Below, piece by piece: positions 3,648-21,010 of a DNA stretch of 64,000 nt. The stretch is from an uncultured Methanosarcinales archaeon (lineage in GTDB: Archaea > Nanobdellota > Nanobdellia > Woesearchaeales > GW2011-AR9). The stretch is taken from the NCBI GenBank assembly GCA_964344235.1, contig CAYFMJ010000003.1, positions 16,054 through 80,053 of the forward strand, given 5' to 3'. Numbering within the stretch: position 1 is the stretch's first letter; each line of letters starts with the position of its first letter. The notes beneath the pieces were generated by a model. The model made no database searches, had not been told where the DNA came from, and saw only the letters and a program-made list of their open reading frames with translations. A program made the position numbers and the translations under genes.

Positions 3648-3688
3648 ATTACTTTGGGGATTTGTTAATTTAAATATTCTATCCGTAG

Positions 3689-3741
3689 TTGTCCAGTGGG
3701 GAGTGGCTACAAAGTGGGACAGAACTATAGAGAGTAGTAAC
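3689..3741. promoter_or_regulatory. Conserved upstream element, copy A. It comprises TTGTCCAGTGGGGAGTGG, a 12-nt insert, then CAGAACTATAGAGAGTAGTAAC; a third part, TAACGAAAATTC, lies at 3879-3890.
   Basis: Near-identical to 36010-36059 upstream of lhr. Both copies lie upstream of minus-strand recombination/repair genes. Confidence 0.5.
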
Positions 3742-6113: not shown

Positions 6114-6482
6114 CTAAGCACTAGCAGAAGCAACTAACGGACTTTGAAAATCAGCTTGAGCAAAAGCAGGCAATTTTTCTATAATCTTTTGGTTTCCGTG
6201 TTCAAAAGATAATGAAATAATCCAATAGTTGCGATAATTAGTAAACTGTAATTCTGCTTCTTGTAATCCAGAAAGCATTTCTTTACTGATATTCTCATTC
6301 AAAGTATGCAAAAATTTGTAGGCATCTAGTAACTCTACATTAGCAATTCTTCTATCTTTATCTAAATCAATTACTAATTCTTCAGTTACTTCTACGCTTT
6401 CAGAAACGGAAGCGTCCTCTCTATAAATAGTTAAGACATCTCCTTCTTTATCATACGAGACCTTAAATTTTTGACTAATCAT
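6114..6482 (-). CDS. DUF2283-domain protein (putative antitoxin-like partner)
   Basis: N-terminal SYDKEGDVLTIYRED matches the DUF2283 signature (compare 20789-21010). Confidence 0.5.
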   Translation of the reverse strand: MISQKFKVSYDKEGDVLTIYREDASVSESVEVTEELVIDLDKDRRIANVELLDAYKFLHTLNENISKEMLSGLQEAELQFTNYRNYWIISLSFEHGNQKIIEKLPAFAQADFQSPLVASASA

Positions 6483-6503
6483 ATTTACTTGAAATCCCCG
6501 CTA

Positions 6504-6851
6504 CTATTTAAACCTTTTTCTGTATCTTTTCAAAGTCGTTCTGCCTAGTGGAAATACAGTGATAATCTTGATTTGTTTGTCAAATTTGAGTACATAACGT
6601 CTGCCTCTATTATTTGAATATACAAAATAACATCTAAATCTCTCCTCCTTTTCGCCCCCATGCTCTATTTGCTGTTTCTCAGTAAATGTGAGATCTTTCG
6701 GATTTAAGACCTCTTCTTTCATTTTGTCAACAGTTGTATTATTCCTTTTGCACAACCAATCAAGAATACGAGATTTAGTAAAAAAGATTTGGTCTTTTGA
6801 ATATTTCTTAACTTTCTCTTTGACAACATCAGATTTATCTCTTTTAGCCAT
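6504..6851 (-). CDS. Putative toxin-like small basic protein (BrnT/DUF4258-like C-terminus)
   Basis: C-terminal EERFRCYFVYSNNRGRRYVLKFDKQIKIITVFPLGRTTLKRYRK resembles the E-ERf...vv..R..IRIISaRkAtk.Er toxin pattern. It is immediately upstream of a DUF2283 gene. Confidence 0.35.
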   Translation of the reverse strand: MAKRDKSDVVKEKVKKYSKDQIFFTKSRILDWLCKRNNTTVDKMKEEVLNPKDLTFTEKQQIEHGGEKEERFRCYFVYSNNRGRRYVLKFDKQIKIITVFPLGRTTLKRYRKRFK

Positions 6852-6995
6852 TATCTACAACAATTCAAACAGTAATATAAAAACATTCCTAAGAATTTTC
6901 TTCCCGCCTTTTCTAGAATGTAAAAACTAACTAAGTGGAATTTTTTCTTATGTAAGCTAAGATAGTTCAATGCTACACTGTGACGTGCTGGAAAA

Positions 6996-7048
6996 ACTTG
7001 CTCCGCTAACGCTACGCACCCCTACATAAAGTAGGGGGCACATAACCT
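6996..7048. repeat. 53-bp direct repeat, copy 1 (ACTTGCTCCGCTAACGCTACGCACCCCTACATAAAGTAGGGGGCACATAACCT), with an internal hairpin at 7019-7037 (CCCCTAC-ATAAA-GTAGGGG)
   Basis: Identical over 53/53 positions to 8041-8093 (direct comparison). Confidence 0.9.
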
Positions 7049-7112
7049 CTTATGTGCAATAAGCCTACGACGAGCAGTAGAAGTAAAACTTCTTCTTTAA
7101 TAAAAATGTAAT

Positions 7113-7126
7113 TGGGTGTCCGTTTC
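7113..7126. repeat. 14-bp inverted repeat, left arm GGGTGTCCGTTTCT (partner at 7969-7982)
   Basis: Exact reverse complement of AGAAACGGACACCC at 7969-7982. The two arms tightly bracket ORF 7133-7909. Confidence 0.85.
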
Positions 7127-7132
7127 TAAGAA

Positions 7133-7909
7133 CTATTCTACAACATAATGATAGAAAACTTTTGGTCCTTCTCTTAAATGTTCCTCAAAATGTTTATTCA
7201 ATTCTTTAAGAGAATCTCCACAAGCTCTTAAAAAAAGAGGATCTTTTACTTGAACATGTAACACAAATTTTCCAGATGGAACACTTTTATATCTAGAAGA
7301 GAAAAAATCTAAATCCACTATTTGCTTTCTATTCTTTTCTACCCTTTCTGTTTTCCAGAATAAAAATCGTCCTTCATGTCTTGTTTCGTGAATATGATAA
7401 ATTCTTACATATCCATCACCATCAATAGCATCGTATCCTCTTTTATAAGTATCTAAATCAAATTTATCAGTCGGTAATGAAGACCTAACAGAATCAATTA
7501 AAACATTACCATAAGTTTTAATGATTGCACCAAAACTAGGGATAGCTCCATGATCATATATATCGGCAAATTGTTGTTCAACTGTTGGATATCTTAAAGC
7601 GATTGCTCTTTCCATATAATCAGCAGAAATCCCTAAGCTCTGAGCAACTTCATAAGCAACAGAAACTGGAAAATTTCCTTCATGAACAAGTGTTCCTTCA
7701 ACCGCATCAAGAACTGCTTTATCTCCTTTTCTTTCATCAAACTGCCTTAAAGAATCAGCAAGTGCAATTAAATCTAAAAATTCTTTTTCAGGAAGATTTC
7801 TTTCTGATGGAGATAAAACTAATCTTTGATCTAGTGAATCTGTTCTTACTAAACTTGTTTCTTCATCTGAAGTCATTGTTAATTGAGCACCTTCTTGACT
7901 TTGCAACAT
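7133..7909 (-). CDS. Hypothetical protein (258 aa), cargo of the repeat-flanked cassette
   Basis: Long ORF with no recognisable motif. Bracketed by the 14-bp IR and the 53-bp DRs. Confidence 0.5.
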   Translation of the reverse strand: MLQSQEGAQLTMTSDEETSLVRTDSLDQRLVLSPSERNLPEKEFLDLIALADSLRQFDERKGDKAVLDAVEGTLVHEGNFPVSVAYEVAQSLGISADYMERAIALRYPTVEQQFADIYDHGAIPSFGAIIKTYGNVLIDSVRSSLPTDKFDLDTYKRGYDAIDGDGYVRIYHIHETRHEGRFLFWKTERVEKNRKQIVDLDFFSSRYKSVPSGKFVLHVQVKDPLFLRACGDSLKELNKHFEEHLREGPKVFYHYVVE

Positions 7910-7968
7910 ATATTCTTGAGAATCTAGTTCATTTAAAAAGTTTTCTGCCTGTAACTACTAAACAATAA

Positions 7969-7982
7969 ATAAGAAACGGACA
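7969..7982. repeat. 14-bp inverted repeat, right arm AGAAACGGACACCC
   Basis: Reverse complement of 7113-7126. Confidence 0.85.
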
Positions 7983-8040
7983 CCCCTTATTGCTTGCGCT
8001 TTAATTTTTAACTTGATGTAACTTGGCTCGTCTCCAGCTT

Positions 8041-8093
8041 ACTTGCTCCGCTAACGCTACGCACCCCTACATAAAGTAGGGGGCACATAACCT
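8041..8093. repeat. 53-bp direct repeat, copy 2 (identical to 6996-7048)
   Basis: Direct comparison. It is followed at 8100-8118 by a second hairpin, CATGGAC-ATGAA-GTCCATG. Confidence 0.9.
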
Positions 8094-8099
8094 TTCGGA

Positions 8100-8118
8100 C
8101 ATGGACATGAAGTCCATG
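8100..8118 (-). terminator. Hairpin (7-bp stem, 5-nt loop) downstream of gene 8161-9303
   Basis: Perfect inverted repeat CATGGAC/GTCCATG about 43 nt past the stop of the minus-strand gene. Confidence 0.3.
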
Positions 8119-8160
8119 CCACATAACACCAAAATTCAATAGAATAAGTGTGGAGGAAAA

Positions 8161-9817: not shown

Positions 9818-10945
9818 TTACTCTTGCAAGAATTGCATGAAATCACTCTTGTTCTCAAGCGGTGTTCTCGTTGGTCTTCCTAAATCTTTCCGTGCACCTT
9901 TGTTCACTTTGATCTCTAAAAGAACCGGCCCTTCCATATCCTTAATCTCTTTCATCTTTGCTTTAATCTCTTCCTCAGTTTCTGCAGAAAACGCTGCTTT
10001 GTACCCGTTTGCTACAGCGATCTGAGGGATATTAATAGCATCAGCCGCTGTCGGCTGCCCACCAACAGAATCGTGTGCAAAGTTGTTGAAGACAATATGT
10101 TTAAAGTTATGAGGTTGCATTTGTCCAACACTCGACAATGCCCCCATATGCATAATCAATGCACCATCACCATCAAAACAATAGACTTTCCGCTGAGGTT
10201 TTTGCAAGGCAATACTTAAAGCAATAGATGAGGAATGGCCCATACAACCAACTGTTAAGAAGTCACGATGATGACCAAGATCATTATTTGCACGAAATTC
10301 AAATAATTCCCTCGATGTTTTACCGGTGGTAGAAACAACAATATCAGAATCGTCTAGTAATGGAGCGACGAATTTGACTGCGTCTTCTCTATTAAACGCA
10401 TAATTGGTTACTTTCTTGTTTTGTAATTCGTATTTTTCAAAGGTTCCTTTCCTAACAACAATTGCAAATGGCTTGTTATGTTTTGTCATATGTGCCGTTG
10501 CTTTTGTCATAAGTTTTTGAGCTTCTTCAATGGAATCTGGAAGAATGCCATACTCGATGCCTAGTGTGTTTAATTGTCCTAATGTTACTAACCCCTGCTT
10601 AACATGTTGTGGTTCATCTTTTTTACCTGGTTCCCCACGCCAACCAATGATTAAAAGCATTGGAATAGAATACGCATGAGGGTCCGTTAGTGAAGTTAAC
10701 GGATTGACACAATTTCCCAAACCAGAATTTTGCATGTAGACAACTCCCATTTTTTTGGTTGCTAAATGGTATCCTGCAGCAAGAGCGATGGCATTCCCTT
10801 CATTTGCAGCAATAATGTTGTTACGTGGTTGAACATTATCTGTAATGAATGCACAAAAGTCTTTCAGTAATGAATCTGGGGCTCCTGCATAGAAAGTGAA
10901 ATGATATTGTTGGAATACGTCAAATAGTTCCTTTGGAGAGATCAT
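9818..10945 (-). CDS. ThDP-dependent phosphonopyruvate/sulfopyruvate decarboxylase family enzyme
   Basis: GAPDSLLKDF, IIAANEGNAIALAAGYHLATKKMGVVYMQNSGLGN and LLIIGWRGEPGKKDEPQH are hallmark blocks of Ppd/ComDE. Length 375 aa. Confidence 0.6.
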   Translation of the reverse strand: MISPKELFDVFQQYHFTFYAGAPDSLLKDFCAFITDNVQPRNNIIAANEGNAIALAAGYHLATKKMGVVYMQNSGLGNCVNPLTSLTDPHAYSIPMLLIIGWRGEPGKKDEPQHVKQGLVTLGQLNTLGIEYGILPDSIEEAQKLMTKATAHMTKHNKPFAIVVRKGTFEKYELQNKKVTNYAFNREDAVKFVAPLLDDSDIVVSTTGKTSRELFEFRANNDLGHHRDFLTVGCMGHSSSIALSIALQKPQRKVYCFDGDGALIMHMGALSSVGQMQPHNFKHIVFNNFAHDSVGGQPTAADAINIPQIAVANGYKAAFSAETEEEIKAKMKEIKDMEGPVLLEIKVNKGARKDLGRPTRTPLENKSDFMQFLQE

Positions 10946-20792: not shown

Positions 20793-21010
20793 GCTGTTGC
20801 AAGAATATTTTTAACATTAACATTGGTTAAAGATTCCATAGGGATTCTTTTACTTGCATCTAAAATTTCAATACCCAAAATATTTCCATCACTATCTAAA
20901 TCAATAATGGTAAAATCATCAATTTTTTTATTTGAGGCAAATGTTCCCTTACGGAACTCTATATACACTGCATCTGCTTCTTTATCGTAGCTAATTTCCA
21001 TTATGAGCAA
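20789..21010 (-). CDS. DUF2283 family protein
   Basis: MEISYDKEADAVYIEF is the canonical DUF2283 start. Confidence 0.6.
   Translation of the reverse strand: MLIMEISYDKEADAVYIEFRKGTFASNKKIDDFTIIDLDSDGNILGIEILDASKRIPMESLTNVNVKNILATA

Follow-up and report, generated by a model that had tools for sequence, protein, structure and literature searches.

A probable gene cassette in a XerA-linked, integron-like array of recombination sites from DPANN archaea

Integrons are the standard example of a platform for gene capture, with integrases that probably descend from Xer-like recombinases. In the superintegron of Vibrio, near-identical repeats of tens of nucleotides (Vibrio cholerae repeats, VCRs) lie around individual small genes in a chromosomal array. 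A comparable arrangement is the subject of this work: a 1,045-bp unit with one gene and a 53-nt direct repeat on either side, located upstream of a gene for a XerA-type tyrosine recombinase in a 64,000-nt stretch of DNA (the window) from an uncultured archaeon (assembly GCA_964344235.1, contig CAYFMJ010000003.1, positions 16,054 to 80,053). VCRs are canonical attC sites, bacterial and served by a true IntI, and in this they differ from the sites described here. Positions are those of the window, gene orientation refers to its minus strand, in which every feature of the unit reads naturally, and other genomes and contigs carry L numbers.

Archaeal integrons were first reported in 2022, under a strict definition that requires IntI and attC (Ghaly et al. 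2022, PMC9668308). The integron integrase carries an IntI-specific additional domain around patch III (PMC9668308), and an attC site is an imperfect hairpin that bears the motifs R'' (RYYYAAC) and R' (GTTRRRY) at its extremities, with crossover at R'. The other closely related systems are those of Xer and dif. Archaeal dif sites are composed of imperfect 11-bp inverted arms and a 6-bp spacer, with the hallmark TAA(N)6-8TTA (PMC4640148, PMC11840125), and the ATAA/TTAT motif governs Xer binding and cutting (PMC11705084). Small adaptive modules bounded by Xer-type sites include integrative mobile elements exploiting Xer (IMEX), such as CTX-phi, and the pdif modules or xrs cassettes of Acinetobacter (PMC11705084, PMC6449649).

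We describe here a family of sites, its arrays and their common orientation, the boundaries of the cassettes that they contain, the covariation of a hairpin, a rule of complementary cassette ends and the linkage of the sites to xerA. In our reading, to which we give a probability of about 70%, the 1,045-bp unit is one cassette in a XerA-linked, integron-like site-specific recombination array of DPANN (Nanoarchaeia-type) archaea. Such a gene-capture system does not seem to have been described before.

The site family and its arrays

The two 53-nt repeats (6996-7048 and 8041-8093, 1045 nt apart) are identical at 53 of 53 positions and each contains the hairpin CCCCTAC-ATAAA-GTAGGGG (7019-7037 and 8064-8082), as a first-pass annotation of the sequence had recorded. 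The window holds no further full copy with three or fewer mismatches, and shuffled sequence gives none. Two assemblies in the European Nucleotide Archive from other samples of the same project (L004 and L005) reproduce the whole structure, with both 53-mers identical, and an assembly artefact is therefore ruled out.

The 53-mer is the right-hand part of a site of about 75 nt, in which a palindromic core resembling dif is followed by a covarying 7-bp hairpin and then by a conserved tail. The core, ATT-N3-CATAAC-GAT-GTTATG (left arm, spacer GAT and right arm), is the best-conserved block of the 36 sites compared; the GAT spacer is absent from six of them, all belonging to an ultra-conserved "canonical" subtype. 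The tail closes with GAGCAAGT and is followed by a T-run in about half of the copies; in the window a run of five T directly follows the second direct repeat (6991-6995). A degenerate-pattern search revealed the core of the 53-mer in L012 and L009 (98-100% identity), two further archaeal genomes in which no gene for the 247-aa protein encoded in the unit lies nearby, and a second pattern search yielded 13 metagenome contigs with the site. The annotation had taken the identity of the two window copies to imply a recent event. Identity over the same 51 nt is 96-100% in L012, L009, L016 and other genomes, which points to constraint on the site and not necessarily to recency.

The hairpin arms vary with compensation (CTAC/GTAG becomes CAAC/GTTG, AGAC/GTCT or CCTGAGG/CCTCAGG) between invariant flanks. 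Over the 36 sites the hairpin is 98% paired, with double compensatory changes at six of its seven pairs, and none of 500 shuffles reaches the observed score. At the variable position of the palindromic core there is no covariation, and the left arm of the core pairs with the adjoining right arm and not with the distal GTTAG. An extended 16-bp hairpin including G.U pairs was discarded, the GCG[T/G/A]AGC variation being uncompensated. Certain hairpin subtypes (CAGGGGG/CCCCCTG, CCCAGAC/GTCTGGG and CCTAGGG/CCCTAGG) recur across genomes, in sites of L040, L038, L015, L017, L019 and L022, as would be expected if right-hand site halves travel between genomes with cassettes; site subtypes are also more alike within one genome.

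A covariance model, R1, built from 14 copies, detects same-strand copies in arrays: seven in 8.4 kb of L015, nine in L040 and three or four in L038, together with second site copies in L016, L017, L020 and L022. This overturned the notion of a single-copy conserved element, an artefact of exact-pattern searches that catch only the most conserved subtype. Consecutive sites are separated by one to three accessory genes. The sites themselves occupy intergenic gaps and share one common orientation regardless of that of the genes. Cargo types include RHH+PIN and ParE pairs, methyltransferases, Fic and NUDIX proteins and many unannotated small proteins.

The boundaries of a cassette are revealed by a 236-aa methyltransferase cassette which is present twice in one L040 array, the copies being 93% identical over 919 nt. 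Their homology starts on the left at GCATAAC-GAT-GTTATG, with outer left arms that bear no relation to each other. It stops on the right at ...AAATTAAACATAAC-GAT-GTTA, and the right arm and hairpin beyond are likewise unrelated. Both edges thus fall in the core, indicating crossover inside the shared 13-nt core CATAACGATGTTA. They also define the cassette, which opens with a right arm, hairpin and tail, continues with the gene and closes with a left arm, so that every site of an array is hybrid, with one part from each of the two cassettes adjoining it. For this reason A/T variants of the left and right arms assort independently (A/T 10, T/T 7, A/A 3, T/A 2), a pattern which fits protein half-sites and not an RNA stem. 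The window maps exactly onto this scheme: repeat 1 heads the 247-aa cassette, which ends in ATTGCACATAA-GAG, repeat 2 heads the next unit, and the copies are identical rightwards from the boundary between AG and GTTATG and different leftwards of it. A comparison of L012 (1954-2076) with L017 (6930-7052) shows a site marking a synteny breakpoint, since 72 nt at 87.5% identity and a homologous membrane-protein gene are common to both directly on the right of the site and nothing is common on its left.

These observations bear on a possible RNA nature of the element. A small structured RNA gene or an RNA-level signal (terminator, insulator or processing site) might have multiplied between genes, with the direct repeats arising by homologous recombination between copies. 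The covarying hairpin, whose G.U pairs are found only on the gene-orientation strand, the A/T-rich promoter-like boxes upstream, the T-run past the tail in about half of the copies and the ultra-conservation of the right part despite a damaged core would all suit such an element. It would account neither for the uniform orientation of sites in arrays whatever the gene orientation, nor for a core that lacks covariation at its variable position and in which the cassette boundaries exactly lie. No Rfam family matches the site at gathering or permissive thresholds, and ARAGORN, in default and in relaxed and intron modes, gave nothing consistent with a tRNA or split-tRNA target. We regard an RNA origin as distinctly improbable. 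The annotation had itself mentioned a repeated terminator element, an idea which the single orientation per array and the position of the boundaries in the palindromic core speak against. It had also considered that its cassette would be refuted were the 53-mer a common intergenic terminator repeat with relatives carrying the gene alone. The 53-mer family is indeed present at many unrelated loci and the gene does occur without the repeats in L003, L007, L032 and L033; what the repeats form is an array of recombination sites and not a trivial terminator.

Other identities were also considered for the site. C/D or H/ACA guide RNA boxes are absent, as judged by eye, and IS200/IS605-like ends are ruled out by the xerA-linked arrays and by the absence of TnpA and TnpB. 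No viral contig was found to carry the site, six hairpin-only matches being unrelated phage terminators, and a match in L011 (Brocadiales) is due to chance and lies inside coding sequence. The site sequence was not found in the searchable literature.

The features of the window are, in gene orientation:

8128-8140, minus strand: degenerate left-arm box ATTGAATTTTGGT before the truncated site E', matching the ATTGAA left flank of the family without TAAC
8097-8127, minus strand: truncated site E', GTTATGTG-GC-ATGGAC-TTCAT-GTCCAT-GTCC, of family architecture and fused to the repeat 1 site at a shared GTTA
8041-8093, minus strand: direct repeat 1, comprising the right arm, the covarying hairpin and the tail with which the 247-aa cassette starts (68 bits for the covariance-model hit at 8036-8118)
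8025-8046, minus strand: 5' flank segments GCAAGTAAGC and GACGAGC, complementary to the 3' flank segments at 7056-7077
7972-7985, minus strand: upstream arm of the 14-nt inverted repeat, GGGTGTCCGTTTCT, cassette-specific in sequence, the feature being general across cassettes
7931-7944, minus strand: promoter of the cargo gene, AAAACTTTTTAAAT, resembling a TFB recognition element (BRE) and TATA box, kept in the orthologues L001, L003, L007, L032 and L033
7133-7876, minus strand: cargo gene of an uncharacterised family, 247 aa from the conserved start; the open reading frame (ORF) reaches 7909 as 258 aa
7114-7127, minus strand: downstream arm of the 14-nt inverted repeat, AGAAACGGACACCC, 5 nt past the stop
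7047-7077, minus strand: cassette tail, with the stems GCTCGTC and GGCTTATTGC and then the left arm ATTGCACATAA, followed by an altered 4-nt spacer GAGG (CGATG in the family)
6996-7048, minus strand: direct repeat 2, with right arm, hairpin and tail, the head of the 115-aa/DUF2283 unit (covariance-model hit 6991-7075, 82 bits)
6114-6851, minus strand: genes for the 115-aa and DUF2283 proteins, resembling a toxin-antitoxin pair, downstream of repeat 2 and in synteny with L012
3785-3803, minus strand: left-arm-only half-site ATTGCACTTAGTGAAATTC, about 140 nt upstream of xerA, with similar half-sites upstream of xerA in L038, L036 and L040
2832-3647, minus strand: xerA-type tyrosine recombinase gene, 271 aa, candidate enzyme for the sites; its stop overlaps the start of nreA (1642-2835) by 4 nt

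The truncated site E', with its own, different hairpin, had been overlooked by the annotation; its hairpin type resembles that of the site at 5930 in L015. To the left of direct repeat 1 lies GTCCGAAAG, and a proper left arm and core are lacking there. Two spurious ORFs, of 43 and 73 aa, cross sites in the window (8008-8139, minus strand) and in L015 (5885-6106) and share the motif VMWHG.H.HVR because both translate conserved site sequence. Such site-derived ORFs are a pitfall for gene callers.

Complementary cassette ends and the cargo gene

The two arms of the 14-nt inverted repeat lie inside the direct repeats, on either side of the gene. The annotation had reported this repeat as perfect, which it is, and had placed it at 7113-7126 and 7969-7982; the arms are in fact at 7114-7127 and 7972-7985. 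The downstream arm lies 5 nt past the cargo stop codon and the upstream arm is placed 5' of the TATA box of the cargo gene, 62 nt ahead of the annotated ATG (7909) and 95 nt ahead of the conserved ATG (7876). The flanks of the gene as a whole are long imperfect inverted copies of one another. In L006, an 850-bp contig from a further sample corresponding to window 7119-7968, the assembly ends beside both 14-nt arms; the break could be due to low coverage or to an assembly-graph effect of the repeat.

The ends of 21 cassettes bounded by two model hits were compared, taking the 70 nt after one site and the 70 nt before the next. Cognate flank pairs (n=21) have a median longest exact complement of 11 nt, reaching at least 10 nt in 15 of the 21 (71%), and a mean duplex energy of -32.9 kcal/mol, compared with 6 nt, 1.2% and -19.2 kcal/mol for non-cognate control pairs (n=420; p = 1.3e-10 for the exact stretch and p = 1.9e-10 for duplex energy). 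The terminal repeat sequence is different in every cassette. The 14-nt inverted repeat of the window is thus one case of a general rule of end complementarity, for which an RNA element multiplied between genes would give no reason.

When the circular junction of the window cassette is modelled, it folds at -82.2 kcal/mol (z = -8). The 14-mer, a 7-bp stem (GCTCGTC/GACGAGC) and a stem of about 9 bp (GCTTATTGC/GCAAGTAAGC) nest symmetrically in it, at 85 and 88 nt from the site. Native single sites are without such nested complementarity, and the idea that long inverted repeats generally flank native loci was dropped, as none was seen around single sites; the complementarity belongs to cassette ends. 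The stretch from repeat 2 to the half-site near xerA, considered as one large cassette, has no end complementarity.

We propose that sites in direct orientation upstream of the xerA-nreA operon would recombine in pairs by crossover inside CATAACGATGTTA. An integrated cassette would consist of the right arm, hairpin and tail at its start, the gene or genes, and a left arm at its end. The two 53-mers would then be the right-hand parts of two such sites, and the 14-nt inverted repeat would represent the terminal repeats of the cassette itself, flanking a single reconstituted site in the excised circle. The neighbouring XerA-type enzyme would catalyse the reaction and cassettes would pass through a circular form. 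The window cassette itself is probably now fixed in place and no longer excisable, to judge from its sites: the first lacks a left arm and the second has a central region of 4 nt (GAGG) where the family has 5.

A single ORF bracketed by an inverted and a direct repeat, with flanks that are long imperfect inverted copies, might also suggest a miniature inverted-repeat transposable element (MITE), which the annotation had named as one possibility, or another non-autonomous transposon, the inverted repeats being its termini and the direct repeat a long target-site duplication. The direct repeat is, however, a pre-existing conserved site, found in other genomes without the gene, and the inverted repeat reflects cassette-specific end complementarity, with a different sequence in every cassette. 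We know of no precedent for a 53-bp target duplication. Homology to the orthologous cassette reaches past the inverted-repeat arms, the unit is single in the window, no transposase is encoded in cis and the cargo protein shows no transposase or nuclease fold. We give this explanation next to no credence.

The only substantial ORF between the 53-mers is, as the annotation stated, that on the minus strand at 7133-7909 (258 aa). Its start requires revision, since all orthologues begin at the equivalent of 7876 (MTSD..., 247 aa). A Shine-Dalgarno-like AAGGTG within 7885-7897, also kept in the orthologues, precedes this start, and the first ATG of the 258-aa ORF (7909) sits upstream of the likely transcription start (7877-7909 region). 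A word-indexed protein search gave five clusters of relatives and an exhaustive profile search 208 cluster representatives (E <= 1e-3), nearly all of 200-270 aa. By its sequence relatives, the protein is therefore a member of a widespread uncharacterised family and not an orphan. It has no match in Pfam, NCBIfam or PDB sequences, and its AlphaFold model (pLDDT 84.3) gave no Foldseek match better than E = 0.02 or TM 0.26. A role as transposase, nuclease or recombinase, the first two of which the annotation had proposed to look for, finds no support in any of these searches.

Orthologues of the cargo gene in L003 and L007 sit among core genes (aRF1, histone, aIF5A) and those in L032 and L033 elsewhere; none of the four is accompanied by the 53-mer repeat. 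Only the orthologue in L001 (59% amino acid identity) has flanks in common with the window: identity is 87% over the 70 nt 5' of the ATG and 92.5% over the 80 nt past the stop, in both cases more than in the coding sequence. A degenerate 53-mer copy lies upstream (22 bits) and the left arm ATTGCACATAA downstream. The L001 copy is located about 144 kb from the xerA of its genome, so that the same cassette occupies different places in the two genomes. The description of the unit as a non-autonomous cassette is borne out, as it contains a single gene, has no recombinase of its own and has an orthologous cassette with degenerate flanks elsewhere. In L007 (77-2692), the aRF1 gene beside the orthologue holds an intein with a LAGLIDADG homing-endonuclease domain.

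The accessory setting is as the annotation described, with the toxin-like/DUF2283 pair and a Cys-rich protein of 380 aa, with a signal-peptide-like N-terminus, as neighbours. A distant second DUF2283 homologue is located at 20849-20995 on the minus strand (37% identity over 49 aa).

The XerA-type recombinase and its relation to integrons and dif

At six of the seven loci with upstream sequence (the window, L009, L038, L040, L043 and L044), the sites are found upstream of the gene for a XerA homologue and point in the same direction as this gene; L036, which has no upstream sequence, is outside this count. This linkage also argues against the RNA explanation. The window recombinase scores 219.4 bits on NCBIfam recomb_XerA_Arch (cutoff 220) and 195 bits, in two stretches, on integrase_gron (cutoff 265). 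Its best PDB relatives are the XerA proteins 4a8e and 5hxy of P. abyssi and T. acidophilum. The IntI-specific insert is missing: residues 174-190 span IntI 181-239 of VchIntIA (2a3v), skipping about 42 residues. The pairing of xerA with nreA, followed by a phosphoribosyltransferase gene, is kept in L040 and L043, which suggests a core operon beside a variable array.

Half-sites with a good left arm and a divergent right side lie 140-230 nt upstream of xerA in four genomes. In an integron this position would be that of attI and, by analogy, the xerA-proximal half-site may be a terminal, attI-like site. A motif resembling CACTGGTC(A)GGT is also found just upstream of xerA, twice each in L040 (about 9890-9980) and L038 (about 9890-9960), with a window counterpart, CCCACTGGACAAC, at about 3685-3700; it could be a regulatory site for xerA.

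In many ways the arrays resemble integrons. A tyrosine-recombinase gene adjoins an array of directly oriented, foldable sites, between which are mostly single, promoter-poor or unannotated accessory genes and toxin-antitoxin pairs. Site sequences contain a cassette-specific imperfect palindrome, a terminal half-site is located at the recombinase and ectopic cassettes have decayed sites. At least two same-orientation sites separate cassettes in the window, L015, L040 and L038, as in integrons. The differences concern both enzyme and site. The enzyme is XerA-like, without the IntI-specific domain, and its gene is downstream of and co-oriented with the array, whereas that of an integron is divergent. 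In contrast to attC, the RYYYAAC- and GTTRRRY-like motifs, which agree only in part with the R''/R' consensus, adjoin centrally (CATAAC-GAT-GTTATG), where crossover takes place, and the variable inverted repeats lie outside. The window cargo gene has its own promoter and array cargo genes occur in both orientations.

The sites might nevertheless be attC sites of an ordinary integron array without an adjacent integrase (a cluster of attC sites lacking integron integrases, CALIN) and be served by a true IntI encoded elsewhere. The integron-like architecture, with same-orientation folded sites between mostly single unannotated or toxin-antitoxin genes, would agree with this, as would the greater resemblance of site subtypes within a genome and the label "tyrosine recombinase/integron integrase" that NCBI gives to these recombinases; integrons and CALINs have been reported in Nanoarchaeota (PMC9668308). 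However, the linked recombinase lacks the insert of about 42 aa and falls below the IntI cutoff, the anatomy is inverted relative to attC, with palindrome and crossover central and variable repeats outside, the left arm pairs with the adjoining right arm rather than the distal GTTAG, and Rfam gives no match. We consider a CALIN unlikely.

The likeness to archaeal dif is closest in the core. Like dif, the sites carry an ATAA-central region-TTAT motif, and the left arm is identical at up to 10 of 11 positions to ATTGGATATAA of P. abyssi dif, ATTGGATATAA-TCGGCC-TTATATCTAAA (PMC4640148, Table 2), to which the family core aligns as ATTGGACATAA-CGATG-TTATGTGC... The family core ATTnnnCATAA-CGATG-TTATGTGCCCC corresponds to TAA-N5-TTA, and the window repeat-2 site to N4. 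Sites in direct repeat with an identical central region are, in Xer/dif systems as here, in a configuration that permits excision. Here, each site additionally has a one-sided extension of about 45 nt, made up of the covarying hairpin and tail. A dif site is present as a single copy per chromosome, located at the replication terminus or skew switch; the present sites reach nine copies per locus and, with this and their 5-nt central region, they fail as dif proper. GC and tetramer skews of the window are uninformative on the location of the terminus.

A related explanation, which shades into the one we favour, is that the sites are the chromosomal dif region and the cassettes tandem IMEX-type insertions using the housekeeping XerA, with no dedicated platform. 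It could draw on the dif-like core and nearby xerA, and on the ultra-conserved canonical subtype, of which exact-pattern searches find one copy per contig. Modules of xerA and dif exist in some archaea, and IMEX arrays at dif are known in Vibrio (PMC5357621). As in IMEX and pdif modules, a chromosomal Xer-family enzyme would act in trans. Against it stand the central region of 5 nt and not 6-8 (PMC11840125, PMC4640148) and the lack of an intact core in either window copy; the skew test is uninformative and no site copy is found on viral contigs. No known IMEX extends as far as these arrays of up to nine sites and single genes, each gene with terminal inverted repeats of its own. Cassette-specific terminal repeats of this kind are foreign to pdif modules as well as to IMEX. 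Moreover, most pdif modules are inverted or differ in their central regions, and they failed to be excised in tests (PMC11705084), whereas the arrays here are chromosomal and unidirectional. This explanation appears doubtful to us, while retaining a real share of the probability.

Several points weigh against a XerA-linked cassette array. No recombination has been observed, and neither an excised circle nor the empty site with a single 53-mer, for which the annotation had proposed a search, was found. The window has only two full sites and a truncated one, both full sites have defective cores, and a covariance-model scan finds no site between repeat 2 and xerA. One xerA locus, L042, is without a detectable site. 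R1 derives from the window's own site subtype and therefore samples sites with a bias. The central region (ATAA-N5-TTAT) is shorter than the 6-8 nt of described Xer sites. The sites may overlap archaeal CALINs already reported. Lastly, the right part remains ultra-conserved even where the core is damaged and this, with the strand asymmetry of G.U pairs in the covarying hairpin and the T-run next to it, could mean an RNA-level function. The right-hand part must be conserved for a reason of its own, for which an accessory-protein site and a small RNA are both candidates only.

A stronger proposal, to which we would give slightly less than even odds, is that DPANN archaea of the Nanoarchaeia/Woesearchaeota type carry an undescribed platform distinct from IntI/attC, with an insert-less Xer enzyme encoded in a xerA-nreA operon, chromosomal arrays of single-gene cassettes and composite sites. 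The latter would combine a dif-like core with a 5-nt centre, a hairpin conserved in structure and cassette-specific outer inverted repeats that meet only in the excised circle. The end complementarity, as a simple rule, and the site model, as a searchable query, can be used to find such cassettes in metagenomes. If the proposal is correct, the logic of cassette arrays would need neither the IntI-specific domain nor the anatomy of attC, and the system would either have arrived at the integron logic independently or be left over from the transition from Xer to IntI. Between chromosome-dimer resolution and gene capture it would supply an intermediate that can be tested, and it would offer a concrete route for the exchange of accessory genes among the genome-reduced DPANN archaea.

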